Shown: piece after piece, positions 18,011 to 62,020 of the stretch
How positions within the stretch are numbered: position 1 is the first letter of the stretch
How the letters are laid out: each line of letters begins with the position of its first letter
Origin: Candidatus Levyibacteriota bacterium
GTDB taxonomy: Bacteria > Patescibacteriota > Microgenomatia > Levybacterales > UBA12049
NCBI GenBank assembly: GCA_963722305.1
Contig: CAVRKE010000001.1
Span: forward strand, 181,529 to 245,528
Direction of reading: 5' to 3'
DNA: 64,000 nucleotides
The notes under the pieces: model-generated
Seen by the model: the letters and a program-made list of their open reading frames with translations, nothing else
The model's database searches: none
What the model was told of the DNA's origin: nothing
Made by a program: the position numbers and the translations under genes

Positions 18011-19087
18011 CGAAGTGCAACACTTGAGGTAAAATCAATTACCGAAAGGAGGTGTTGCGCTATGTATAATCATTTAACTCTTGTAGAGCGGGAAGAGCTT
18101 TATGCGCTTAAGCATGCAGGACTAAGTCTGGGAGATATTGCAGATAAATTAGGACGAAACAAAGGCACTCTGTCTCGTGAACTCAAAAGAAACAGAACAT
18201 ATACCAAGGGATTGGAGAAAACTTCAGCCGTATATATTCCCTGCCGTGCACAACAAAAAGCTGATAAGAGAGCAGCTATTCAACGCTCTCAAGCATCCTG
18301 GAAAGGACCGGAGGTCTACTCTTATGTTAAAAAGAAACTAATAGAGAAACAGTGGTCTCCTGAAACAATTGCCGGAAGATTGTCAAAAGATCATCCCGAT
18401 CTTTCAATTGTCCATGAAACTATTTATCAGGCAATCTACAAACCACAGAACAAGCAATTTAAGCTCTGGCAATATCTAACAGTAAAACGCAAGAAAAGAA
18501 TGAAAAAGCTGGGAAGAAGGGTTAATAGAGATAGCCGTATTCCTGAAGCTATTTCGATTGATAGTAGACCCAAATCGATTGACACAAGATTACAACTTGG
18601 CCATTGGGAGACAGATAATGTGATAGGCCGCCAAACTGACAAGACTGCCCTGTCAGTAACGGTTGAAAGAAAACTAAGGCTTACTGTTATGTCAAAGCTA
18701 GCTGCTAAAACAGCAGATGAAAAAACTAAGAAACTGTTTGCTAGAATGAGTCGTTTTCCTGACAAAATCAGAAAAACTCTGACTGCTGACAATGGAGCTG
18801 AAAATACCAAACATAAACAAATTACGGAGAGCTTAGACATGTCTGTATATTTCTGTCATGCATATCACTCCTGGGAAAAAGGAACGGTTGAAAATATGAA
18901 TGGAAGAATCAGGCGTTTTATTCCTAAAGGCATAAGCATGGATCTAATTACCGAAAGAGACGTTGCTTTAATTGAATGGGAACTGAATAATACGCCCAGA
19001 AAATGTTTGGATTGGAAAACACCACTTGAAGTTTTAGGAGAAATCATGCAGAATACAAAAACCTCAAATCGTTGCACTTCGAGCTAG
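18011..19087 (+). mobile_element. IS30-family insertion sequence (about 1.07 kb) with imperfect terminal inverted repeats
   Basis: IRL cgaagtgcaacacttgaggt (18011-18030) matches IRR acctcaaatcgttgcacttcg (19052-19072) in 18 of 20 positions with one indel. A single DDE transposase ORF lies between them. Confidence 0.8.
18062..19087 (+). CDS. IS30-family DDE transposase
   Basis: 341 aa with an N-terminal HTH (LSLGDIADKLGRNKGTLSRELKRN) and an IS30-type catalytic region (HWETD...ADNGAENT...YFCHAYHSWEKG). Confidence 0.85.
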   Translation: MYNHLTLVEREELYALKHAGLSLGDIADKLGRNKGTLSRELKRNRTYTKGLEKTSAVYIPCRAQQKADKRAAIQRSQASWKGPEVYSYVKKKLIEKQWSPETIAGRLSKDHPDLSIVHETIYQAIYKPQNKQFKLWQYLTVKRKKRMKKLGRRVNRDSRIPEAISIDSRPKSIDTRLQLGHWETDNVIGRQTDKTALSVTVERKLRLTVMSKLAAKTADEKTKKLFARMSRFPDKIRKTLTADNGAENTKHKQITESLDMSVYFCHAYHSWEKGTVENMNGRIRRFIPKGISMDLITERDVALIEWELNNTPRKCLDWKTPLEVLGEIMQNTKTSNRCTSS

Positions 19088-19223
19088 AATGTACCTTGAC
19101 ATATGTTGAAGCAAAGTATAATCTTATAGTGAATTAAAGTCAACCCATTACTTGCTTAAACTACATAAGAGCCACAATATTGCATCTTTCAAATTGATTG
19201 CAAATAATGCTATTATATTTTTT

Positions 19224-19760
19224 ATGACAGAAGATGTTTGTCCGAAGTGCGGATCACCACTGGCGCCGGTTACCGAAACATCCAGTGGACGAAAATTACA
19301 GCGTTGTTCAACCGGCAGTTGGGATCCTAAAACCAGAACTAATGAAGGCTGCGACTACGTTAAATGGCTTCCGTTTGAACCGCAGGAGTTGGACGAAAAA
19401 TGCCCCAAATGCGGCGCTCCTTTGGTAATGCAGATGACCCGTTTTGGCAAAAAAATGAAAAAGTGCAGCGCTGGCACCTGGAATAAGGAAACCAAAAAAG
19501 CCGAAGGCTGCGACTACGTCGAATGGATTAACGGCACTACCCAAGCCACCGACGAGCTATGCCCACAATGTAAAAGTCCGCTGGTTTTATTTACCACTAA
19601 TGCCGGAAAGCGGATGAAAAAGTGTTCAACTGCCGGCTGGGACAGGGAAAAAAGAGTCGCCACCGGTTGTACGTACATAGAATGGCTTAAACCGGAAGCA
19701 AAAGCCAAAGAAGACAGTGGCGGCGAAGAATTTTTACCCCCTGAACCACAAGGTGAATAA
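19224..19760 (+). CDS. stand-alone protein made of three tandem topoisomerase-type C4 zinc-ribbon repeats
   Basis: Three repeats of about 45 aa with the pattern CP(K/Q)C-x-PL-x8-12-K(K/R)MKKCS-x-W-x9-GC-Y(V/I)EW, resembling the Zn-ribbon repeats at the C-terminus of topoisomerase I. The start is moved to MTEDVCPKCG. Confidence 0.5.
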   Translation: MTEDVCPKCGSPLAPVTETSSGRKLQRCSTGSWDPKTRTNEGCDYVKWLPFEPQELDEKCPKCGAPLVMQMTRFGKKMKKCSAGTWNKETKKAEGCDYVEWINGTTQATDELCPQCKSPLVLFTTNAGKRMKKCSTAGWDREKRVATGCTYIEWLKPEAKAKEDSGGEEFLPPEPQGE

Positions 19761-19825: not shown

Positions 19826-21565
19826 ATGTTTTTACTATTGGCGTTTGCTTTTTTATCCGGTTTTGTCACTATCTTAACCCCCTGCATTTGGCCGCTCCTG
19901 CCGATTGTCTTATCCTCAAGCGTTACCGGAACCAGCCATCAGCGACCGCTGGGGGTGACCCTCGGTATTATGCTGAGCTTTGGCATTTTTACCTTAGTTA
20001 TTTCTTCATTGGTCAAACTACTAAATTTCGACCCGAATATTTTGCGCTTAATCTCGGTGGTTGTCATCGCAGTTTTAGGCATTAGCTTAATTATTCCGGC
20101 CGCCGGTGCCAAATTGGAATTGCTTATCAGCCGCTTATCCGCCATGTTTGGCGTTAAAACTCAACAGCAGGGAAACGGTTTTTGGCCGGGATTTATCACC
20201 GGTGTGGCTTTGGGAATTGTCTGGTCTCCATGTGCCGGACCGATATTGGCTGCCATCGCCGCGCTGGCCGCTACCGGAAAAATTACTTTTGACGCCGTTT
20301 TGGTAATTATTTTTTATGTTTTCGGTATTGGCTTACCGTTGTTTGTTTTTGCCTACGGCGGCCAGCAATTATTTGTCAGAACCAGATTTATCTCCCGTTA
20401 TACCGGCCGTATTCAACAAGTTTTCGGCGTAATTATGCTGTTAACTGCCTTGGCAATTTATACCAACTATGATGTGGCTTTTGAAACAAAACTCCTTGAT
20501 GCTTTCCCGGGGCTAAATACGACCTTAAACAACTTTGAAAATAACTCAACTGTTACTAATCAGCTGAATGTTTTAAAAGGCACAAGCCAATCAACGCCGC
20601 AAGCGACAAATAACAATACAGACCTATTTAACAGTAACTTACCTGCTCCGGATTTTTCGGGAGGCACAAATTGGCTTAATTCAAAACCGCTCACTATCGC
20701 CGAATTAAAAGGGAAAGTAGTGCTGGTTGATTTTTGGACTTACACCTGTATTAATTGTATCCGCACTTTGCCGCACATTACAGCTTGGTACGAAAAATAT
20801 AAAAATTTAGGGTTTGTGGTCATCGGAGTGCATACTCCGGAATTTCAGTTTGAACACGACACCGGCAACGTCCAAAATGCCATAAAAATGTTTGGCATTA
20901 ACTATCCGGTTGTTCAGGACAACAATTACGCTATTTGGAACGCTTACAATAACCAGTACTGGCCGGCCGAATATTTAATTGATTCAAACGGCAACATTCG
21001 CCGGGAAAATTTTGGCGAAGGAGATTACGACCAGACCGAAACTGCAATCCAAACGCTATTACAACAAGCGGGGAAAACCGTTCCGAAATCGATACTGAAA
21101 ATTCCTGACCAGACGCCGCAGGAACAAATCTCGCCGGAAACATATCTAAATTCCCAGCGTATGCAATATTATTATCCCGGTGGCAACACCGGTAACACCA
21201 GTGCCAATTTTACCTTATCCAATAATTTGCCGGTTAATGCTTTTAGTTTCGGTGGGAAATGGACAATCGATGCTAATAGCGCTACTGCCGGGAATAATGC
21301 AAGTTTAAATTATAATTTTTATGCTAACAAAGTGTTTTTAGTCTTAAATCGGGGTTCAACAAACCAGGCTAAAATAAAAATATTTTTGGATGGCCATTTG
21401 GTCGATAAAACCTTTGCAGGAGGAGATGTCGTCAATGGGGAAGTTGTAATTGATTCGGATCGTCTTTATAATTTAATCGATTTAAAAGGCAATCCCGGCA
21501 ACCATATTTTAGAGATTCAATTTGAAACTCAGGGAATAAAAGCTTTTGCCTTTACTTTTGGCTAG
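19826..21565 (+). CDS. fused CcdA/DsbD-type membrane domain and TlpA/ResA-like thioredoxin domain, with a C-terminal extension of unknown function
   Basis: 579 aa. N-terminal polytopic region with paired Cys (LTPCIWP, WSPCAGP). Redoxin domain with CxxC (FWTYTCINCIRTLP). About 150 aa of unassigned C-terminus. Confidence 0.7.
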   Translation: MFLLLAFAFLSGFVTILTPCIWPLLPIVLSSSVTGTSHQRPLGVTLGIMLSFGIFTLVISSLVKLLNFDPNILRLISVVVIAVLGISLIIPAAGAKLELLISRLSAMFGVKTQQQGNGFWPGFITGVALGIVWSPCAGPILAAIAALAATGKITFDAVLVIIFYVFGIGLPLFVFAYGGQQLFVRTRFISRYTGRIQQVFGVIMLLTALAIYTNYDVAFETKLLDAFPGLNTTLNNFENNSTVTNQLNVLKGTSQSTPQATNNNTDLFNSNLPAPDFSGGTNWLNSKPLTIAELKGKVVLVDFWTYTCINCIRTLPHITAWYEKYKNLGFVVIGVHTPEFQFEHDTGNVQNAIKMFGINYPVVQDNNYAIWNAYNNQYWPAEYLIDSNGNIRRENFGEGDYDQTETAIQTLLQQAGKTVPKSILKIPDQTPQEQISPETYLNSQRMQYYYPGGNTGNTSANFTLSNNLPVNAFSFGGKWTIDANSATAGNNASLNYNFYANKVFLVLNRGSTNQAKIKIFLDGHLVDKTFAGGDVVNGEVVIDSDRLYNLIDLKGNPGNHILEIQFETQGIKAFAFTFG

Positions 21566-21646: not shown

Positions 21647-21850
21647 TTACTTTTGTGCAATTTCATCAATAATCAAATAAAGATCATTGATTTTATCCGC
21701 TAACATTTTCTCTATAACTGCCCTTTTTGTATCGAGATCGGGATAACGTATACTTTCGTAGTCATCAAAAGAAATCTTAAAATTATTAAAATAACTATTG
21801 GCTGATTGTTTGGCTTTTGCTGATTTCGGTTTGAAATTTTTTATCTTCAA
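21647..21850 (-). CDS. hypothetical small protein
   Basis: 67-aa ORF with no motif, at the island boundary. Confidence 0.2.
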   Translation of the reverse strand: MKIKNFKPKSAKAKQSANSYFNNFKISFDDYESIRYPDLDTKRAVIEKMLADKINDLYLIIDEIAQK

Positions 21851-22004: not shown

Positions 22005-22256
22005 TTAATTGCTAGTAGGGAGTGGAGTTTCTTCCGTTAAGTCAGAGATTGCAATCTCCATCCTTGCCATTATTTCATCTGGTTCGTTAGGGTCACAAAA
22101 TCCATTATATTGAATTTCAACGGATGCTATACCATTATATCCATGAGTATGTCTTGTTGCTGGTCTTTTAAAAGTATCATAAAAGATATCACCATCAGGT
22201 TCTATGAAAGCATGGGATGGACCTATTTTGTAGGGACGTTTTTCGTATTCTGGCAT
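22005..22256 (-). CDS. hypothetical small protein (weak resemblance to the UPF0150/HicB-like antitoxin fold)
   Basis: 83 aa. FIEPDGDIFY...DPNEPDEIMARMEIAISDLTEE loosely resembles the HicB N-domain pattern. It is flanked by two copies of the motif TTGTCAACTATRGG. Confidence 0.25.
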   Translation of the reverse strand: MPEYEKRPYKIGPSHAFIEPDGDIFYDTFKRPATRHTHGYNGIASVEIQYNGFCDPNEPDEIMARMEIAISDLTEETPLPTSN

Positions 22257-22334
22257 AAGTGGATTATAATTACGAGTGTAAGAATTGTCAACTATGGGAC
22301 TTAGTACCGCGTGCGCACTTTATCAAGTACGTCG

Positions 22335-22380
22335 CTCCGATGAGCTCCGGGAGTCGAACCCACGATCTTCTCAGGATTCT
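22335..22380 (-). pseudogene. degenerate tRNA fragment (T-arm region identical over 18 nt to tRNA-Glu at 27582-27655)
   Basis: The minus strand reads ATCGTGGGTTCGACTCCC, identical to the tRNA-Glu T-arm. The T-stem 3' strand is mutated (CCCGG instead of CCCAC) and there is no intact acceptor or 5' half. Confidence 0.4.
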
Positions 22381-22434
22381 CCTACCATTCCGATAAGAAA
22401 CTTTTTCAAAGCAAAAAGCCAATGGGATTTTTCA

Positions 22435-22545
22435 GTGAGCTATATGGTTCCAGCCTGGAACCCCTGTTTAAAAGTCTCACAAAAATATACTTTAAATTAC
22501 TTGAACTAGGCTTAGTATATCATGAAAAGGAGGTAAAATGAACCC
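22435..22545 (+). repeat. 111-bp repeat, copy 1: promoter/RBS/start-codon cassette with the internal palindrome GGTTCCAG-N-CTGGAACC; an inverted copy lies at 45691-45802
   Basis: About 95% identical to the reverse complement of 45691-45802. Contains TTTAAA-16nt-TAGTAT, GGAGG and ATGAACCC, the start of the PLD-like gene. Confidence 0.85.
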
Positions 22546-22987
22546 TTTCCCCTCATCAAGGTTATATGACGAAAAGACGTTTTACCAAGCCTTCTTAAGA
22601 GACCTAGAGGGTTGTAGGAGTGAGGTAATCATCGAAAGCCCGTATATTACCAGTAAAAGAGCTGAAATGTTAATTCCTATATTCGACGACCTTTTAACTA
22701 AAGGTGTCAAAATCTATGTCATTACCAGGGATCCTCAAGAACATGAGGAAAATATGGAATATCAGTCCGAAGAGGCTATATCGTTATTTGAACATATGGG
22801 AATACAAGTCTTACTTTGTATTGGCAATCATCACCGAAAACTGGCCATATTAGACAGAAAAATACTTTGGGAAGGAAGTTTAAATATTCTTTCGCAGAAT
22901 CACAGTCGGGAAATAATGAGAAGGATTGAGAGCAAACAGTTGGCAATAGAGATGTTTGAGTTTTTGAGACTTTATAGATTTATATAG
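22538..22987 (+). CDS. phospholipase D (HKD) superfamily nuclease-like protein
   Basis: 149 aa with a single HxK(x)4D motif (NHHRKLAILD) plus the downstream GSxN (EGSLNI), typical of small Nuc-type PLD nucleases that act as dimers. Confidence 0.65.
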   Translation: MNPFPSSRLYDEKTFYQAFLRDLEGCRSEVIIESPYITSKRAEMLIPIFDDLLTKGVKIYVITRDPQEHEENMEYQSEEAISLFEHMGIQVLLCIGNHHRKLAILDRKILWEGSLNILSQNHSREIMRRIESKQLAIEMFEFLRLYRFI

Positions 22988-23003
22988 GAACTCAAGATGT
23001 ACG

Positions 23004-23477
23004 CTACCTGAGAGGTAGTTCATGTGGTAGTTTCAGTTCCTTAGCAATTACGCTAGCTTGTTTTTTTGTTTCCTCAATCCGTTGTTTGTTATCTGACGCA
23101 ATTGCTTTCCAGTAAGCAATTTTTATGTCAACATATCTTTGTCGAAGCTCTTCATAGTGTACCTTTTCAACGAGGTGTATTTTTTGCTTTTCAAGTAATT
23201 TTATTTGTTCATCTGCAGCATCTGGACCTATGCTGCGATTCTTGAGGTATGTTCGCATATCTTCAATTGATAATCCTGTCGCATTAAGGCAGGCGACAGA
23301 AATTACAAGGTTAACATCGTCTTCCGTGTATGTTCTGTGTTTGCTGCTTTCGTCACGATGGATTGGGTGAATTAATCCTATTGTTTCGTAATAACGAAGA
23401 GTGCTTTCAGGAAGCCCACTTAACTTGGCAGCTTCTCTAATTGTATATGTTTGTGAATTATTTCTTTGCATGTTCAC
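23004..23477 (-). CDS. MerR-family transcriptional regulator
   Basis: N-terminal MerR HTH (YTIREAAKLSGLPESTLRYYETIGLI) and a C-terminal coiled-coil dimerisation helix. Confidence 0.8.
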   Translation of the reverse strand: MNMQRNNSQTYTIREAAKLSGLPESTLRYYETIGLIHPIHRDESSKHRTYTEDDVNLVISVACLNATGLSIEDMRTYLKNRSIGPDAADEQIKLLEKQKIHLVEKVHYEELRQRYVDIKIAYWKAIASDNKQRIEETKKQASVIAKELKLPHELPLR

Positions 23478-23480
23478 TTA

Positions 23481-24137
23481 TTATACATCCGCTTTAAGTT
23501 TCTCAAATGCTTCGCTCCAATTATCAATTTGATTATCTCCGCTATACAGTTCGAAAGTTTTTCCTAGTGATTGTGGGTTTTCTAATGCGGCCACAATGAC
23601 TTTACCAAGTGTAACCCCGGATATATCATTTCTTCTGCCGGTATACTGATCACCCTGTTCTAAAGATATACCTTCCCCATTTTCTTCATCTCCAATAACC
23701 CATGCAGGACGGATAATAGTGTATAAGAATCCTGATTGCCGTATTAGTTCTTCTGCTTTAAGTTTTGCCTTGTTATAATCTGGCATTCTTTCAATTTCTG
23801 TAATTCCAATATGACCCATAAAAATAATATGAGCATTTCGCGGTGCTACCTTTAGGACATTTTTTACACCTTCAACGTAAACTTCATTAAGCTGTTCTGG
23901 ATCCCGGCTTGATTCGACGCTAATTACGATTCCCATTGCGTTTTGAAGTGCTGGTTTTAAAGATTCAATATTAGTAATACTTCCTATAACATACGAAATA
24001 TTACCTTCATCCGGTTGAGTATGTCTTGCCAATACTGTAACAAGTGCTCCTTTTTTAGCTGCCTGCCTAACTGAATTATGTCCAAGCCATCCGGTACCTC
24101 CTATGACGACGATTTTTTCGCCTTTAATAGATTTCAT
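23481..24137 (-). CDS. NAD(P)H-binding oxidoreductase (NmrA/atypical SDR-like)
   Basis: Rossmann motif IVVIGGTGWLGHN at the N-terminus. 218 aa. Confidence 0.6.
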   Translation of the reverse strand: MKSIKGEKIVVIGGTGWLGHNSVRQAAKKGALVTVLARHTQPDEGNISYVIGSITNIESLKPALQNAMGIVISVESSRDPEQLNEVYVEGVKNVLKVAPRNAHIIFMGHIGITEIERMPDYNKAKLKAEELIRQSGFLYTIIRPAWVIGDEENGEGISLEQGDQYTGRRNDISGVTLGKVIVAALENPQSLGKTFELYSGDNQIDNWSEAFEKLKADV

Positions 24138-24155
24138 ATTTATAAATGATTTGAG

Positions 24156-25001
24156 TTATTTTTTAGGATTAAGTTCTCCAAACCAATATGAAGCTGTAAC
24201 ACCGCCATCAATTAAAAAGTCGCTTCCTGTAATAAATCCTCCCTCAGGCCCCATGATAAAAGCTGCAAGACTAGCTACTTCTTCCGGAGTGCCACTTCGT
24301 TTTGCGGATGATAATTCAATCATTCTTCGGTATCCTTCTCCCCTTGGCCCTTTTAGTTCATCATTAGCAAGTGGCGTCATAATGATTCCCGGGCTAATAG
24401 TATTTACTCTGGCTCCACGCTTTCCCCAGAGGACCGCTTCTGCCATTACTCTAAGCGAGTTTCCTCGTTTTGAGATTTGATAAGCATGAAGTGAGTCAGT
24501 AATTTTATCTAACTGAAGAAAGGGAAGCGAAAGTAATTCTTCAATTGGGGTTGTTGCCAAGGCCTTATCCTCTTCTGGTGTTAGTGCGGGAAGACGATGT
24601 CCTGACATTGAAGAGATAACAACACCACTACCACCATTTGCTATAATTTTTCCAAATTCTTCAAGAACAACAGCGGTTCCATACAAATCAACATGTAATA
24701 TTGCTTCGGGTGATGCTTGAGACGGAGAAACTCCAGCAGCATGGATAACATGAGTAATTTCACCAATTTTTTTTGCGGTTTCAACAAGTTGGCGTACTGA
24801 GTCACGGGAAGAGACATCTACTGTTGCTGTGCTTACTTCAAATCCTGTATCACTAAATTCCTTTGCTGCCTTTTCAACACTTTCCTGACGTCTGCTAGCC
24901 AGTAATACATGTTTACCCGCACCAACTCTTCTTGCAATTGCTTGCCCAATTACTCCTGCTCCAACAACAACTACTACATTTTTTAAATCTGGATTTTTCA
25001 T
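24156..25001 (-). CDS. short-chain dehydrogenase/reductase (SDR) family oxidoreductase
   Basis: Glycine-rich cofactor site (VVVVGAGVIGQAIA) and a YxxxK catalytic motif (YQISKRG). Confidence 0.75.
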   Translation of the reverse strand: MKNPDLKNVVVVVGAGVIGQAIARRVGAGKHVLLASRRQESVEKAAKEFSDTGFEVSTATVDVSSRDSVRQLVETAKKIGEITHVIHAAGVSPSQASPEAILHVDLYGTAVVLEEFGKIIANGGSGVVISSMSGHRLPALTPEEDKALATTPIEELLSLPFLQLDKITDSLHAYQISKRGNSLRVMAEAVLWGKRGARVNTISPGIIMTPLANDELKGPRGEGYRRMIELSSAKRSGTPEEVASLAAFIMGPEGGFITGSDFLIDGGVTASYWFGELNPKK

Positions 25002-25005
25002 ACAC

Positions 25006-26037
25006 CTAATTTTTAATTTGTACTTTTATAGCTTTACGTTTGTCCATTGCCTCATATCCTTTTGCCAAATCAGAAAGCGGCAGCGTCAAATCAAATATTG
25101 GAGATGGGTCAAGTTTGCCTGAAAGAACATCTTTCAATAATTCTGGCGTATACGATGCGGTTGGTGCAATGCCGCCTCCGATTGTAACGTTTCTCCAAAA
25201 TATATCATTTACTTTTATATCAGGTACATCTTCAGGGATTCCTACGCATCCGATTCTTCCACCGGGTCTTACCATGCCCATTGCCATACTTCGAGCATCT
25301 TTTCCTCCCACACATTCCAAAACACAATCAGCACCAACCTCTGTTAGCTCTTTGACTTTGTCTATGCCTTCTTGTCCACGTAATGCGACAATATCTGTTG
25401 CGCCGAAGAGTTTTCCTACCTTTTGACGATCTTTGTGTCTACTCATCAAAATTATCTTTTTGGCGCCAAGTCTTTTACTCGCAAGTACTCCACAAAGACC
25501 AACCGCTCCATCTCCAACAACTGCAACAGTTTTTCCTTTTGAAACTCCTGCTGAAACAGCTGCATGATGACCGGTTCCCATCACATCAGATAACGCGAGA
25601 ATTGCCGGTATTAGTTTTTTATTTGTTTTTTTGGGAAAAGTGAAGAGATTAGCATCTGCAAAGGGAACCCTTAGTTTTTCTGCTTGGCAACCGGTTGTGC
25701 CTTTATTACCCCAATTACTTCCGTTGATACATTGACTGCTCATCCCTTTTTGACACAAAATGCATTTTCCGTCACACCATGAGAATGGACCAACAGCTAA
25801 ATCTCCAACCTTAACATTTTTAACGTCTTTTCCAACTTCAATAACCTCTCCCATGAACTCATGACCGATTCTCGTACCTGCTTCTCTTTTGAGAATGCCA
25901 CGATACCACCATAGATCAGACCCGCAAATGCAGGTATTAGTTATCTTAATAACCGCATCAGTTGAATTTTCAATTTTTGGGTCCGGTACCTCTTCTACTC
26001 GAATGTCATGGGGTCCGTAAAATATCCCTGCTTTCAT
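25006..26037 (-). CDS. zinc-dependent alcohol dehydrogenase (MDR superfamily)
   Basis: GHEFMGEVIEVG zinc-binding signature, a structural-Zn Cys cluster (CDGKCILCQKG...C) and the GxGxxG motif (VVGDGAVGL). Confidence 0.8.
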   Translation of the reverse strand: MKAGIFYGPHDIRVEEVPDPKIENSTDAVIKITNTCICGSDLWWYRGILKREAGTRIGHEFMGEVIEVGKDVKNVKVGDLAVGPFSWCDGKCILCQKGMSSQCINGSNWGNKGTTGCQAEKLRVPFADANLFTFPKKTNKKLIPAILALSDVMGTGHHAAVSAGVSKGKTVAVVGDGAVGLCGVLASKRLGAKKIILMSRHKDRQKVGKLFGATDIVALRGQEGIDKVKELTEVGADCVLECVGGKDARSMAMGMVRPGGRIGCVGIPEDVPDIKVNDIFWRNVTIGGGIAPTASYTPELLKDVLSGKLDPSPIFDLTLPLSDLAKGYEAMDKRKAIKVQIKN

Positions 26038-26423
26038 GATCGGTATACCTCCTCAGATACTGGTTCTAGCCAGGTAACATCTCCATAAGTAATTGCTAAG
26101 TGACACATTTTATTTTGCTCGTCGGGATGTGCTCCATGCCAGTGTTCTGTGTTAGCGGGAATATATACGACATCACCCGGATCAGCATTGACTATTTCTT
26201 GCCCCTTTAATTGAACTCGTCCTAGCCCCTCAAGAAAATAGAGTACTTGCTCTCCACTATGTTTATGCCATACCGTACGTGCGCCCTTTTCAAAAGTTAC
26301 CCGTCCTACCATTGATGATCCGGAATCTGCTTTAGTAACGTATTGAATATGAGTTGTACCGGTAAAATTTTCCAGCGCTCCTTGTTGTTCTGGAATATCT
26401 GTAGCGTGAATATGTTTTGTCAT
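26034..26423 (-). CDS. cupin-domain protein
   Basis: 129 aa with two cupin motifs (HKHSGEQVLYFLEG ... GDVVYIPANTEHWHGA). It overlaps the ADH gene by 4 nt, suggesting an operon. Confidence 0.65.
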   Translation of the reverse strand: MTKHIHATDIPEQQGALENFTGTTHIQYVTKADSGSSMVGRVTFEKGARTVWHKHSGEQVLYFLEGLGRVQLKGQEIVNADPGDVVYIPANTEHWHGAHPDEQNKMCHLAITYGDVTWLEPVSEEVYRS

Positions 26424-26496
26424 AAGGTTATACTAACAACTTAAAGTACTTTAAGTCAAGTACTCAATACACTCTAACTTTTTTATAATGTCTCAT

Positions 26497-26540
26497 TATT
26501 GGGTTCGAATCCCAAACGGCGTGAGGCTAGAAATATAGGA
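26497..26540 (+). repeat. tRNA-3'-end-like fragment (TTGGG-TTCGAAT-CCCAA-ACGGCGTG plus 18 nt); an inverted near-identical copy lies at 43171-43211
   Basis: About 39 of 41 nt identical to the reverse complement of 43171-43211. It contains a perfect T-arm but has no tRNA 5' half upstream. Confidence 0.8.
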
Positions 26541-26617
26541 TGCGATAGGATTTTAAGGCAATATCTGGAACTTGTTTTAGCTTCAATTCTGAGGATAATA
26601 CCAAGATGCGTAAAAAG

Positions 26618-26689
26618 TGAGCCGGGTGGGATTCGAACCCACGACCAAGAGCTTAAAAGGCTCCTGCTCTACCGCTGAGCTACCGGCCC
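26618..26689 (-). tRNA. tRNA-Lys (anticodon TTT)
   Basis: Hand-folded cloverleaf: acceptor GGGCCGG/CCGGCTC with one G-U pair, D-arm GCTC-AGCGGTA-GAGC, anticodon loop CTTTTAA, T-arm GTGGG-TTCGAAT-CCCAC, discriminator A. Confidence 0.8.
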
Positions 26690-43058: not shown

Positions 43059-43131
43059 GGGCCGCTAGCTCAACTGGCAGAGCAATTCCCTCTTAAGGAA
43101 TAGGTTCAGGGTTCGACTCCCTGGCGGCTCA
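43059..43131 (+). tRNA. tRNA-Lys (anticodon CTT)
   Basis: Hand-folded: acceptor GGGCCGC/GCGGCTC, D-arm GCTC-AACTGGCA-GAGC, anticodon stem ATTCC/GGAAT with loop CTCTTAA, T-arm CAGGG-TTCGACT-CCCTG. Confidence 0.8.
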
Positions 43132-43170
43132 CTAATTTTACCATCGTTAATTTAGCCTCGAATTGTAGCA

Positions 43171-43211
43171 AATTTATCCTATATTTCTAGCCTCACGCCG
43201 TCTGGGATTCG
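43171..43211 (-). repeat. inverted copy of the tRNA-3'-end-like repeat found at 26497-26540
   Basis: The reverse complement reads GTTCGAATCCCAGACGGCGTGAGGCTAGAAATATAGGAT, about 39 of 41 identical to the copy at 26.5 kb. It lies 40 bp downstream of tRNA-Lys-CTT. Confidence 0.8.
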
Positions 43212-43274
43212 AACACACCAAAGATATGCCCTATAGTTTGACAATACTGCACATTATGTGATAAAATTTGTCAT

Positions 43275-44228
43275 ATGTTAAATCAATCACCTGAAGGATA
43301 TAGACAAGGAATTCCAATAGAAACACCTGGTTTTAGCGGAGATGCTTCTTCGCATACAGATGGTGTTGTAACCAGAATTAATCGTAGAGATTATATGCCT
43401 GGATTTTTAGAAACTACCCCAGTCACAATAATTCAACATAATCCTAATGGACAACTTGTTTTTAGCACAGAATATGATAAACGGCAGCTTACGCCCGAAG
43501 AAAATATGGCAATTGATGAACAACTTAAAGGTCCTGATACCATAGTTGAGATACTTCCTGACGGTGAAATTAGCATAGATCGCGGTTCAGCTCTTGAAAA
43601 TGGGTCACCAGCTTGGTTCACTCAGTGTAAAGAATTAGGTGTTAAAAGAGCCTTAAAAGAAGCAGCAGTTTTAGAAGCATTAACTGGATTCCAGAACGTA
43701 TTTTGGGGACCACATATTGGAAAAATAACTCCAATTATGGTCGTAGATCCTGATTCTGGTATTGAATATCAGACAGGCATCAGATTAAGTCATGATTTTC
43801 CTTGGACTACTACTGAAAAAAGAAAATTTAGAAGACCGAAAGCTATTCCGATTGTGGGCAAAAATGTTGTAGACATTACCTATAAAGCAACTGAAGCTAC
43901 TAAAGATTCAGGAGTTTTAGATACTGGTAACATATATTATCGTGAGAAATCAGCTGTAATAAGTATTCTTGCATTTCTTGATCCAAATGAACTTGAAGGT
44001 ATAGAAAATCCAACCACTTATAACCCTGATGATTTAAGATTTTTAAGTAAATTAGGAATTGGTTTAAATTTAGCTTTTGATCCGCAGCGTTTTAAACCGG
44101 ATAAAGATTTGACCTTAAAAATAGATGGAATTTTACAACGATTCGGAGATTTTACCGTATCACTGGGAACAAATGCTCCGCAACTAATCGAAAGGGGAAC
44201 AGAAAGAGCTAAAACATCTGTTAAGTAA
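43275..44228 (+). CDS. hypothetical protein
   Basis: 317-aa ORF with no recognisable motif, immediately upstream of the Fic gene. Confidence 0.3.
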   Translation: MLNQSPEGYRQGIPIETPGFSGDASSHTDGVVTRINRRDYMPGFLETTPVTIIQHNPNGQLVFSTEYDKRQLTPEENMAIDEQLKGPDTIVEILPDGEISIDRGSALENGSPAWFTQCKELGVKRALKEAAVLEALTGFQNVFWGPHIGKITPIMVVDPDSGIEYQTGIRLSHDFPWTTTEKRKFRRPKAIPIVGKNVVDITYKATEATKDSGVLDTGNIYYREKSAVISILAFLDPNELEGIENPTTYNPDDLRFLSKLGIGLNLAFDPQRFKPDKDLTLKIDGILQRFGDFTVSLGTNAPQLIERGTERAKTSVK

Positions 44229-44455
44229 TTAAAATTTTTGTAACTAACCTATAAAAAGCTTTTTAATTTAAGAAAATCAAACATTTCCAGAGCCACTGTT
44301 TCGTTTTCAATCCTTCTCATAATCTCCCGGCTTTTGTTTTGAGAGAAGATATTTAAACTTCCTTCCCAAAGGAATTGACTTTCTCATAGCTTTTTGCTAA
44401 ACTAGATTTAGACTAATTATTAGACCAATAGCTAGACTAATAATAGACTGATTTT

Positions 44456-45664
44456 ATGAACAAAATAGCTTCAAAACCATTCGCACACACTTTTTTATCA
44501 CAGTTTGTTCTTATACAAAAGCTGCTGCCTTTTTCTGATGATGAAATCAAAAATATAGATGCAGAACTGGCAGAGTATGAACAAGTATTCTTAAATCCGG
44601 ATATAGAGAAGAACTTGATTAGCAGAAATGAGCTTTTAGCTTCTTTTGCTATCTCTAAAGCGGAAAACTCAACCCTAACGCTTCAAGAGGCGCAAGATGT
44701 TTATAACTTACTGCTTACAAATGAAGAGTACACTTTTATTTCGGATAAACTTAAAAAAAAAGAAAAATTAACGCAGAAAGATTATGACAAGCTGGAGTTT
44801 TATAATATCGCCAAAACTTTTCGTAGTCTTAATGAAACACCGTTTAGTATCGATAATATCACGGCTGACGACATACGCAGACTCCACCAAAGCTTAAGCC
44901 TTGGATTAGATGTGTTTGAAAAGTATTTACTTGATTTTACTGTTTATAAATCCGGTAAGTTTCGCGATAATGATACGATTAGAGTTGGCAGCTATATACC
45001 GGCTCCTTTTGAAGCGATAGAGAAAGGAGTTGAAGAGCTTCTTTTGTATCTTAAAACCAACAAAACCATTACCGGAGTGGCTGTTTTTCATACTGGTCTT
45101 TATGCTCTTCATCCATTTAACAATGGGAATAAGCGAGTTTGTCGAATCTTAGAACACATTTTCTTTCGGGATCTTGGTTTAAATCAGAAAAATCTTTACA
45201 GTACTTCATATTATTACCATAAGCAAAAACAAAGGTATTATAAATACTTACTCTATTCCCTTGAGCGAAGAAATCTAAACCATTTTGTTTCCTTTGTCCA
45301 AGAAGCGCTTGTATTGTCTATGATTGGAGTTTTAAAATTAAGTCTTTCAGCAAAACGAAGTGAATTTTTAAGTAATCAAACAAGCGATGAGCAAATACGT
45401 CTTGTTTTAAAATCTTTGATTAAAAGACGTGAATTACAGTTTAAAAACCTGTTTGTAGCAGTCAGGGGTAAAATGGCCAGACAAACTTTTGTAAATCAGT
45501 TACAAAAAGCCACAGATGAAAAGATTATTCTAAAACGTGAAGCAGGACGAACTACCTATTATTGTCTTAATTTTAATACGCCCGAGGAAGAAGCACTGAA
45601 TAGATGGCTTACTTTTGCCAAGAAGAAACTATCCTACATACCCGATGAGATAAAATTGTTATAG
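44456..45664 (+). CDS. Fic/Doc-family protein with a variant active-site motif
   Basis: HPFNNGNKRVCR matches the Fic core HPFx(D/E)GNGRxxR except for N at the D/E position and K at the second G. The C-terminus looks like a winged helix. Confidence 0.7.
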   Translation: MNKIASKPFAHTFLSQFVLIQKLLPFSDDEIKNIDAELAEYEQVFLNPDIEKNLISRNELLASFAISKAENSTLTLQEAQDVYNLLLTNEEYTFISDKLKKKEKLTQKDYDKLEFYNIAKTFRSLNETPFSIDNITADDIRRLHQSLSLGLDVFEKYLLDFTVYKSGKFRDNDTIRVGSYIPAPFEAIEKGVEELLLYLKTNKTITGVAVFHTGLYALHPFNNGNKRVCRILEHIFFRDLGLNQKNLYSTSYYYHKQKQRYYKYLLYSLERRNLNHFVSFVQEALVLSMIGVLKLSLSAKRSEFLSNQTSDEQIRLVLKSLIKRRELQFKNLFVAVRGKMARQTFVNQLQKATDEKIILKREAGRTTYYCLNFNTPEEEALNRWLTFAKKKLSYIPDEIKLL

Positions 45665-45690
45665 TATATATCTCATATTCGTATTTTTTA

Positions 45691-45802
45691 GGGTTCATTT
45701 TGCCTCCTTTTCATGATATACTAAGCCTAGTTCAAGTAATTTAAGATACGTTTTTGTGAGACTTTCAAATAGGGGTTCCAGGCTGGAACCATATAGCTCA
45801 CT
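45691..45802 (-). repeat. 111-bp repeat, copy 2 (inverted copy of 22435-22545), oriented to fire antisense into the 3' end of the Fic gene
   Basis: The reverse complement is about 95% identical to copy 1 and includes the palindrome GGTTCCAGNCTGGAACC, the promoter hexamers, GGAGG and ATGAACCC. The downstream minus-strand ORF is only 13 codons. Confidence 0.85.
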
Positions 45803-61624: not shown

Positions 61625-62020
61625 TTGAAAAGCAAAAAAATGTGGAGTAATATGAATAACATGGATGATACAAAATTGTTGGGAAAAATTGGCATATTAA
61701 TTGACGAAAAGCTTCTACCCCTTAAGAAACAACTTGATACTGTAGAAACAAAAGTGGGGGCTCTAGATGAAAAAGTGGGGGCTCTAGATGAAAAAGTGGG
61801 GGCTCTAGATGAAAAAGTGGGGGCTCTAGATGAAAAAGTGGGGGCTCTAGATGAAAAAGTTGAGTCATTGGATAGAAAAATTGAAATTGTAAACAACAAA
61901 ATTGATAAAGCGCAAGAAGAAACGATTGATACCCTTTCCGAACTAATTGCATCCGGATATAATAACCATGAACGAAGAATTAAAAGAATAGAAAATCACT
62001 TAGAACTTCCCCAAATTTAA
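61625..62020 (+). CDS. small coiled-coil protein containing a perfect heptad (VGALDEK) tandem repeat
   Basis: 131 aa with heptad periodicity throughout (LDTVETK, VGALDEK x5, VESLDRK, IEIVNNK). Confidence 0.4.
   Translation: MKSKKMWSNMNNMDDTKLLGKIGILIDEKLLPLKKQLDTVETKVGALDEKVGALDEKVGALDEKVGALDEKVGALDEKVESLDRKIEIVNNKIDKAQEETIDTLSELIASGYNNHERRIKRIENHLELPQI
61751..61876 (+). repeat. 21-bp tandem repeat (AAAGTGGGGGCTCTAGATGAA): 5 perfect copies plus 1 degenerate, in-frame within a coding region
   Basis: Read directly. Each unit carries an XbaI-like TCTAGA. Confidence 0.9.

Follow-up and report, generated by a model that had tools for sequence, protein, structure and literature searches.

What is a small nuclease-like gene doing behind a block of DNA that recurs, inverted, elsewhere in the same genome? 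This question is raised by a stretch of 64,000 nucleotides from a Candidatus Levyibacteriota bacterium (assembly GCA_963722305.1, contig CAVRKE010000001.1, positions 181,529 to 245,528 of the forward strand), hereafter the window. At positions 22538-22987 it encodes a phospholipase D (PLD)-family protein of 149 amino acids (aa) with one HKD motif. A preliminary description of this DNA interpreted the protein as a Nuc/BfiI-type endonuclease of a restriction or anti-plasmid/defence context, and the repeated block as a duplicated promoter/operator cassette from which the gene is read out. Our analysis points to another origin of the block. The protein is probably a cytosolic single-HKD phosphodiesterase, and its gene the one next to the attachment site (att) of integrative elements that are moved by a serine recombinase and inserted at tRNA-Lys genes; we assign this overall reading a probability of about 0.7. 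The features involved are the following, with element A being the integrated element to which the gene belongs:

22435..22440, plus strand: GTGAGC attachment core (left junction of element A), identical to the 3' end of tRNA-Lys read in antisense
22423..22541, plus strand: tail, a 39-aa frame (MGFFSELYGSSLEPLFKSLTKIYFKLLELGLVYHEKEVK, then stop), matched by the tail hidden Markov model (HMM) with E=1.2e-12
22446..22462, within the tail: perfect palindrome GGTTCCAG-C-CTGGAACC (8+1+8, GGTTCCAGCCTGGAACC), conserved in copy 2 of the block (45790-45774) and in the related locus L001
22529..22533, plus strand: ribosome-binding site GGAGG, ending 4 nucleotides (nt) 5' of the ATG, invariant in alignment A1
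22538..22987, plus strand: intact PLD gene, 149 aa, ATG start, catalytic residues H99, K101, D106, G113-S114 and N116

The protein shows exactly one match to HxK(x)4D(x)6GSxN, at residues 99-116 (HRKLAILDRKILWEGSLN), and no second HxK was present elsewhere in a motif scan of the whole chain. The open reading frame (ORF) preceded by GGAGG, its single motif and the lack of a second HKD are in agreement with the preliminary description. The HMM search suggested there gave a match to Pfam PLDc_2 with 44.3 bits (gathering cut-off 27; E=2.1e-11). Since this match spans residues 21-138, the whole protein is one PLD domain. Residues H99, K101, D106, G113, S114, N116 and E125 were invariant or nearly so across a diverse alignment. 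Neither a signal peptide nor a hydrophobic N-terminus was found (Kyte-Doolittle values below 0 over the first 17 windows), on which grounds the protein should be cytosolic, unlike Nuc, NucT and Zucchini. One database protein is identical to it; scans of PHROGs and NCBIfam yielded nothing useful. The dN/dS ratio of 0.04, calculated against the orthologue in L001 (86% identical), indicates strong purifying selection, which is long-term selection and not necessarily selection acting in the present day. Homology with the relatives of the gene ends at the stop codon, and the 3' flank is unrelated DNA.

The AlphaFold (AF2) monomer model, obtained with a diverse alignment of 64 sequences, reached a predicted local distance difference test (pLDDT) of 94.8 and a predicted template modelling (TM) score of 0.89. 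It superseded an unusable earlier model from 47 close homologues (pLDDT 60.9, below 50 in the HKD region). Single-HKD nucleases ranked first in a Foldseek comparison with the PDB: mouse Zucchini/MitoPLD (E=1.8e-10; 23% identity), Helicobacter pylori NucT (E=2.6e-10; TM score 0.72) and Salmonella Nuc, 1byr (E=1e-9; TM score 0.76/0.75; root-mean-square deviation 2.6 A over 146 columns). A sequence profile of 47 family members detected only MitoPLD/Zucchini among solved structures (E=7.5e-4), and the chains of Nuc and NucT were not recovered at E<=1. Matches to designer-PPR proteins in the PDB search were repeat artefacts.

Nuc (IncN plasmid pKM101/Salmonella; 1byr) and NucT (6ehi) share with the window protein a single-HKD PLD fold of about 150 aa, 1byr giving the best global superposition; Nuc also resembles this family in its location on a mobile element, often beside a type IV secretion cluster. 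However, the identity to the window protein is only 15-17%, and Nuc and NucT are periplasmic or surface-bound. Zucchini/MitoPLD (PLD6; 4ggj, 4ggk, 4gel), likewise a single-HKD nuclease, is the best match by both sequence and Foldseek, but the window protein is shorter, bacterial and element-borne and lacks the N-terminal membrane anchor. BfiI possesses a single HKD domain and dimerises. It carries, in addition, a C-terminal sequence-specific DNA-binding domain, whereas the window protein is a bare 149-aa catalytic domain, and BfiI was absent from the top 50 fold matches. From the earlier comparison with Nuc and BfiI, the Nuc-type stand-alone fold can be retained, with the reservation that Nuc was not recovered by sequence and that the window protein has no signal peptide; the likeness to BfiI cannot. 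The gene is therefore best regarded as encoding a real stand-alone Nuc/Zucchini-like protein, for which nuclease activity is predicted, and the protein as an uncharacterised member of the known single-HKD Nuc/Zucchini-type nuclease class.

A search of 5.8 billion proteins (E<=1e-3, clustering at 90% identity) revealed 4732 homologous clusters. The best 120 of these 4732 were 72-100% identical to the window protein and 132-164 aa long. With HMMER, 1714 relatives were found at E<=1e-3 among 1.8 billion representatives at 50% identity, and a scan of one genome per species gave 165 relatives, several of the scanned genomes having two PLD copies. Nearly all of these 165 with a meaningful organism label belonged to the Patescibacteria/Microgenomates, including Levyi-, Davies-, Gottesman-, Roizman-, Woese-, Collier- and Pacebacteria. 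About one-third of the listed metagenome-assembled genomes were labelled Gammaproteobacteria or Pseudomonadales, and these labels were judged unreliable. In each of 89 fetched loci (designated by L numbers) the homologue was a separate ORF with the same C-terminus; the longest-ORF calls measured 145-193 aa and the shared core about 145-150 aa. By sequence, then, the family, far too large to be put down to chance, comprises thousands of stand-alone proteins of 145-170 aa, almost all from Patescibacteria/Microgenomates. Derivation from a truncated two-HKD cardiolipin synthase, named in the preliminary description as the finding that would overturn its view, was rejected: there is one motif, all 89 relatives stand alone with shared ends, and the 3' flank is unrelated.

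The closest multidomain relatives of the protein appear to be helicase-PLD defence proteins of the Mokosh type. The same PLD domain, with 40-53% identity, was located at approximately residues 800-947 of multidomain proteins of about 1060 aa. One of them, P0132, combines AAA_11/AAA_12 (an Upf1-like helicase), PLDc_2 and a topoisomerase (Top1)-type zinc ribbon, and scored 9e-64 with MkoA and 2.7e-43 with MkoC in PADLOC. The window protein itself matched MkoC (3.7e-12) and MkoB (1.5e-4). Mokosh is defined by a COG1112 helicase together with a PLD nuclease (bioRxiv 10.1101/2022.05.11.491447). The window protein thus resembles the PLD nuclease domain of MkoB (type I) or MkoC (type II), but differs in having no helicase partner: a COG1112/Upf1-like helicase, fused or adjoining, was found neither in the window nor in the conserved neighbourhood of 84 loci. 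Since no helicase accompanies the PLD gene, this is not a Mokosh system as defined; by analogy, the protein would work like the nuclease module of Mokosh or Zucchini. A DISARM affiliation was discarded, as PADLOC gave only a weak match to DrmC (3.2e-5) and no DrmA/DrmB or methyltransferase neighbours were present. The restriction/defence context suggested earlier is accordingly plausible in its defence part, through the Mokosh-type relatives, and not in the comparison with BfiI-type restriction. A 202-aa protein encoded at 19152-19760 of the window contains three topoisomerase-type C4 zinc ribbons and an internal periodic DNA repeat of 159 nt. Its zinc ribbons are of the type that ends helicase-PLD relatives such as P0132, possibly by coincidence.

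The block upstream of the gene is repeated as supposed: positions 22434-22546 and 45690-45802 form an inverted repeat of 113 nt with 94% identity. It takes in the ribosome-binding site and the first three PLD codons (ATGAACCCT). A second repeat (22848-22988 versus 44248-44388, 73%) corresponds to the 3' end of the PLD gene. A sigma-70 scan of the block detected no promoter-like site on the plus strand and no terminator, and its RNA fold was no better than that of shuffled sequences (z = -0.28). Rfam recognised no RNA family in it, with only a sub-threshold tmRNA-like match at 22346-22423. Homology of the first copy with the second copy and with L001 begins at GTGAGC 22435. The block is an open frame that runs to ...SELYGSSLEPLFKSLTKIYFKLLELGLVYHEKEVK and a TGA stop that overlaps the PLD start codon (ATGA). 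The consensus of this tail comprises about 37 aa (W-N-x-I-F-x-S-L-x-x-T-Y-x-K-L-K-x-L-G-F-T-Y-Y-N-G-K-V-x-I-I-E-x-x-E-E), and in 36 of the 84 genome loci the tail HMM found a match directly 5' of the PLD gene. Differences between the tails of relatives fall on codon positions 1, 2 and 3 in the ratio 4569/3006/6822, a signature of coding sequence. We conclude from these comparisons that the block most probably consists of a GTGAGC core and a coding tail left over from the C-terminal end of a large serine recombinase. What the preliminary description called a promoter/operator cassette is thus a genuine repeat with another content; read-out of the gene from it is not supported, and what follows its second copy is a destroyed paralogue of this PLD gene. 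The palindrome GGTTCCAGCCTGGAACC, which lies away from the crossover, could be a binding site for a recombinase arm, an operator or a regulator site.

The origin of the tail was revealed by related loci in which it is still joined to a recombinase. In L059 (6623-8002), a 459-aa recombinase ORF ends, in frame, with the tail and abuts the PLD gene. In P0125/L090, the C-terminus of another recombinase carries the tail, followed by the PLD gene, a small ORF and a helix-turn-helix (HTH) gene. Pfam identified the domains Resolvase, Recombinase and Zn_ribbon_recom in the recombinase cluster. Only five proteins were retrieved when the C-terminal 200 aa of the L059 recombinase served as the query, yet their C-termini proved decisive. 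Close homologues of the L059 protein display an identical pattern up to ...S-L-N-V-S and then continue with PEGFEPSTLSLRARCSTIELR, RLGFEPRTNSLKGYCSTVELP or PTGVEPV, all of which read as translated antisense tRNA. ARAGORN placed tRNA-Lys genes exactly at the divergent recombinase ends in L091, L092 and L053 (4469-6019). At the DNA level, the five junctions share ...ATGTGAGCC and diverge directly after it, GTGAGCC being the antisense of the tRNA-Lys 3' end. The sequence GTGAGC occurs 20-23 nt 5' of the Trp codon of the tail exactly in 22 of 36 loci and with at most one mismatch in 29 of 36. Sequences to the left of GTGAGC are unrelated between tail loci; the tRNA scar that had been expected left of each tail is not a general feature, which fits a serine recombinase with a short core.

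These alignments suggest that the tail is the C-terminus of a large serine recombinase whose gene harbours the attachment site of the element (attP) within its own 3' end, and that this C-terminus alternates with the integration state between the conserved acidic tail and translated antisense tRNA-Lys. Integration would then join the recombinase body to tRNA-Lys and leave [flank]-GTGAGC-tail-PLD at the other end. A whole element of about 6 kb is present on one contig in L053, in the order tail, PLD gene, small ORF, HTH gene, cargo, M23 peptidase, recombinase body and tRNA-Lys. Known large-serine-recombinase elements with attP inside a gene share the Resolvase, Recombinase and zinc-ribbon domains, the short core, the tRNA target and the alternative C-termini. 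Here, however, it is the recombinase's own gene that is split, insertion takes place at the extreme 3' end of tRNA-Lys, the elements reside in members of the candidate phyla radiation (CPR), and the place next to att is almost always taken by a PLD nuclease gene. No description of this combination (attP in the recombinase, tRNA-Lys 3' end, att-adjacent PLD gene, CPR hosts) was found in the literature searched, and this architecture is a more novel by-product of the study than the protein. L076 (7229-8008) contains an in-frame fusion of the tail to the N-terminal 220 or so residues of an unrelated protein; apparently, the element end has landed inside, or was joined to, a host gene.

The association between tail and PLD gene was also examined from the other side. 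In order to avoid circularity, metagenome contigs were searched with the tail only, which gave 80 loci, 78 of them with room downstream. The PLD gene followed the tail directly in 67 of these 78 (86%). In two of the 11 tail loci without PLD, the slot was occupied by a Fic gene. In L110, a Fic protein sharing 95.5% identity with the one encoded in the window (see below) comes after tail and PLD gene, and Fic genes of the same cluster adjoin the tail or the PLD gene in L008, L046, L068, L072, L096, L097 and L110. An att-adjacent slot filled usually by PLD and sometimes by a SoFic-like gene would correspond to the pattern of element-borne defence or addiction cargo.

Clustering of ORFs over 84 loci revealed a conserved gene order, so that the neighbourhood conservation raised as a question in the preliminary description does exist among the relatives. 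The PLD gene on the plus strand is followed by a small helical ORF (51 of 72 loci), an XRE-type HTH gene on the opposite strand (55 of 72), zero to eight variable cargo genes (metal, redox, ABC and TM2-like) and then, according to Pfam, genes for an M23 peptidase, a VirB4-like ATPase, TraC-like, PrgI and VirB6/TrbL proteins and a VirB2 pilin. The HTH protein resembles controller proteins of restriction-modification systems (PADLOC Control_protein, 5.5e-13). Among the 44 loci with at least 7.9 kb of downstream sequence, 27 contained a VirB4-like gene within 8 kb downstream. Convergence of the PLD gene and the type IV secretion system (T4SS) was seen in L030, L032, L040, L056, L173, L175 and about 25 other loci. 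According to a 2025 survey, which mentions neither PLD proteins nor recombinases (PMC12102498), patescibacterial T4SS are chromosomal, belong to the monoderm-conjugation type and in most cases have no relaxase. Beyond the T4SS of L173 and L175, a further 10 kb contained no recombinase and no tRNA-Lys junction, only metal-resistance or restriction-like cargo, and the PLD side carries the housekeeping genes Lon, Gmk, KsgA and YidC. A location of the T4SS inside the element is therefore not claimed; the PLD gene is its frequent convergent neighbour only. In L012 (7806-13700), a tRNA array (His, Arg, Gly, Pro, Leu) is split by several inserts, one of them with a PLD gene; the same array is contiguous in L014, L018 and L066, and tRNA arrays look like insertion hot spots there.

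Judged by these junctions, the window holds two decayed, recombinase-less elements in inverted orientation, each ending at a tRNA-Lys gene:

22435-26623: element A, from the GTGAGC core to GTGAGCC of tRNA-Lys(ttt), with the intact PLD gene
23004-23477, minus strand: MerR regulator, cargo of element A, convergent with the PLD gene
23481-24137, minus strand: NAD(P)H-binding protein, cargo of element A, convergent with the PLD gene
24156-25001, minus strand: ORF resembling short-chain dehydrogenases/reductases, cargo of element A (by inspection of the translation only), convergent with the PLD gene
25006-26037, minus strand: ORF resembling zinc-dependent alcohol dehydrogenases, cargo of element A (by inspection of the translation only), convergent with the PLD gene
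26034-26423, minus strand: cupin, cargo of element A, convergent with the PLD gene
26499..26678, plus strand: 59-aa frame running into antisense tRNA-Lys (...IIPRCVKSEPGGIRTHD...), overlapping repeat I3a (26493-26541)
26617..26689, minus strand: tRNA-Lys(ttt); its 3' end, GTGAGCC on the plus strand (26617-26623), is the right junction of element A
43059..43132, plus strand: tRNA-Lys(ctt), whose 3'-terminal GGCTCAC (43126-43132) forms the distal junction of element B
43126-45801: element B, inverted, from the GTGAGC core to the tRNA-Lys(ctt) 3' end, with the PLD gene disrupted by Fic
43275-44228: 317-aa ORF of element B, between tRNA-Lys(ctt) and the PLD remnant
44249..44388, minus strand: 3' remnant of the second PLD gene (FLWEGSLNIFSQNKSREIMRRIENETVALEMFDFLKLKSFL, then stop), last approximately 41 codons, preceded by a stop codon; pseudogene fragment
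44456..45664, plus strand: Fic-domain gene, 402 aa, SoFic-like (Pfam Fic 1.2e-14; PADLOC SoFic 3e-26)
45690..45698, minus strand: codons 1 to 3 (ATGAACCCT) of the second, destroyed PLD gene
45695..45801, minus strand: GTGAGC core of element B (45801-45796) and tail, 94% identical to copy 1 and 98% to the L001 tail

The order PLD-MerR-NAD(P)H-binding protein was also present on an independent Logan contig. The 59-aa frame at the right end of element A resembles the last codons of L053-type recombinases (...LVPKCELAGIRT...) and may be a remnant of the deleted recombinase body. In the second PLD copy (45801 to 44249, minus strand), codons 4 to approximately 107 are replaced by a 1.3-kb segment bearing the Fic gene in the opposite orientation, a replacement that no simple inversion explains. 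The search of the window with six recombinases (tblastn) detected no recombinase gene, and no T4SS gene was found there. The 16.5 kb between elements A and B are occupied by housekeeping genes (GlmS, UvrA, UvrC and others). The tail of copy 2, at 98% identity to that of L001, is a different allele from copy 1; therefore, the two elements are probably separate arrivals and not the product of local duplication. An inversion between origin and terminus as the cause of the mirror-image copies was rejected, as the GC skew shows no switch and the intervening DNA is ordinary housekeeping sequence.

Two further observations concern the ends of these elements. Positions 26493-26541 and 43176-43224 (I3a/I3b) constitute an inverted repeat of 49 nt (90%) with a stretch resembling a tRNA T-arm plus GGCGTGAGGCTAGAAATATAGGAT. 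The repeats are situated 45-75 nt from the 3' end of each tRNA-Lys, inside both elements; they are weakly similar to sequences beside tRNA-Arg(tct) in L012 and L018 and may be a recombinase-end remnant. Directly left of element A, the minus strand of 22346-22423 contains a degenerate tRNA-like 3' half (GGGTTCGACTCCC T-arm, ending ...GAGCTCAT), which was not called by ARAGORN and matched the tmRNA model weakly (E=0.036). It may be an older integration scar, in which case the region 18-22.4 kb would be the cargo of an older element.

Taken together, the protein and its context suggest the following mode of action. Two copies of the PLD protein would pair and two HKD motifs would form one active site, as expected from the chemistry of the family. 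One H99 would attack the nucleic-acid phosphodiester, giving a covalent phospho-histidine intermediate, while the other protonates the leaving group, and cleavage would presumably be metal-independent. The gene lies immediately after the attachment site of a family of integrative elements found in Microgenomates (CPR). These elements would be moved by a large serine recombinase with attP in its own 3' end and would insert at the GGCTCAC 3' end of tRNA-Lys. Upon integration, the last approximately 40 codons of the recombinase would be split off, the tail staying beside the PLD gene. As for its purpose, service to the element in defence, exclusion or maintenance is the most likely, because of the kinship with Mokosh PLD effectors and the occurrence of Fic in the same slot elsewhere; we propose it tentatively, at slightly less than even odds.

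Several facts weigh against this picture. Of 84 genome loci, 48 show no recognisable tail. The PLD gene of L173 and L175 is flanked by housekeeping genes on one side and the T4SS on the other, and no recombinase occurs within 10 kb, so that the gene cannot always be shown to belong to a mobile element. The window gene lacks its usual companions, the small downstream ORF and the XRE-type HTH gene, and its element lacks a recombinase and T4SS genes; what it does in this genome today may thus not be what it does in active elements. The defence role is argued by analogy, with no Mokosh helicase partner, and the choice of substrate (DNA, RNA or lipid) depends on the modelled fold and the relatives.

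The Nuc/BfiI-type restriction or anti-plasmid endonuclease under a promoter/operator cassette would account for the Nuc-like fold, the single HKD, the real repeat with its perfect palindrome and, in relatives, an HTH neighbour similar to restriction-modification controllers (5.5e-13). It is nevertheless unlikely: the block shows no sigma-70-like site on the plus strand, extends over the ribosome-binding site and three codons, heads a pseudogene in its second copy, starts at the att core and shares homology with the C-terminal end of a recombinase; the protein lacks a BfiI-type DNA-binding domain, no methyltransferase gene lies nearby and the window has no HTH gene. We consider it just as improbable that the protein is an accessory factor of the recombinase, namely a recombination directionality factor or excision helper, expressed by translational coupling once excision restores the recombinase frame overlapping the PLD start. 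Directionality factors of serine integrases are mutually unrelated and sometimes enzymes. The ATGA overlap, the position of the PLD gene as the first after attP in L059 and L090 and its presence behind 86% of the selected tails would suit such a factor, but strictly conserved catalytic HKD residues are needless for a protein-binding role, the gene has its own strong ribosome-binding site and also occurs without tail or recombinase, and the slot is open to Fic or other genes. HKD enzymes work via a covalent enzyme-phosphate intermediate, and the protein could in principle be a DNA-processing enzyme of the CPR T4SS, either a nickase replacing the relaxase or a nuclease handling the DNA moved. 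This is a similarly doubtful proposition. The VirB4-like gene downstream in 27 of 44 loci, the conserved order and the scarcity of relaxases in patescibacterial T4SS clusters (PMC12102498) speak for it, as does NucT, for which a link to Helicobacter transformation is indicated (PMC5714352). However, the PLD gene is convergent with the T4SS operon and not part of it, with a variable cargo slot in between; no T4SS is nearby in 17 of the 44 loci, and none in this window; and the protein, having no signal peptide, could not act extracellularly like Nuc or NucT; it also lacks a sequence-specific DNA-binding domain.

A lipid-directed PLD (a hydrolase or synthase acting on cardiolipin or phospholipids, whole or as a fragment) is very improbable. 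Relatives are named 'phosphatidylserine/phosphatidylglycerophosphate/cardiolipin synthase-like enzyme' by JGI, and MitoPLD was deposited as 'mitochondrial cardiolipin hydrolase', but the family is full-length and stand-alone, with one HKD only and no membrane segment, its nearest relatives are fused to superfamily 1 helicases and topoisomerase-type zinc ribbons, as in nucleic-acid enzymes, and the top fold matches are nucleases. Equally hard to credit is a functionless relic of a dead element. Element A has indeed lost the recombinase, the small ORF and the HTH gene, and the copy in element B is already destroyed; the ORF at 22538-22987 is, however, intact, with all catalytic residues, a GGAGG site and a dN/dS of 0.04 versus L001. 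A bolder combination would make the protein the missing DNA-processing enzyme of relaxase-less CPR T4SS/integrative elements, one that nicks and carries the excised element through its phospho-histidine, or otherwise processes it, and is switched on when excision rebuilds the recombinase frame. We rate this as somewhat less probable than either the accessory factor or the T4SS enzyme; if true, the 'chromosomal' T4SS of Microgenomates descends from, or still belongs to, a conjugative element integrating at tRNA-Lys.

Under the preferred reading, an att-adjacent phosphodiesterase of tRNA-Lys elements, the context matters more than the protein. A family of serine-recombinase elements targeting tRNA-Lys in CPR bacteria, with resistance and defence cargo, would offer a tangible way into horizontal gene transfer in organisms whose mobile elements have hardly been mapped. 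In these elements, the genes next to att (PLD, small ORF, HTH) form a module in synteny with the CPR T4SS that the current literature treats as chromosomal and relaxase-free. The recombinases of L059, L090, L091, L092 and L053 are candidate compact serine integrases with a defined tRNA-Lys target. The PLD family is itself worth biochemical attention as a minimal stand-alone form of the Mokosh/Zucchini-type nuclease domain that is very abundant in Microgenomates.

The window contains a few other features. To the left of element A, a 12/12 consensus sigma-70 promoter (TTGACA-17-TATAAT; 22263-22291, minus strand) precedes an 83-aa ORF (22005-22256, minus strand) with no family match, and a 67-aa ORF is located at 21647-21850. 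A 341-aa ORF at 18062-19087 resembles IS30-family transposases by its translation only, and is followed by a DsbD-TM/thioredoxin fusion at 19826-21565. At 61719-61886, six to eight tandem units of 21 nt (CTCTAGATGAAAAAGTGGGGG) in a coding region give rise to a heptad-like peptide repeat.

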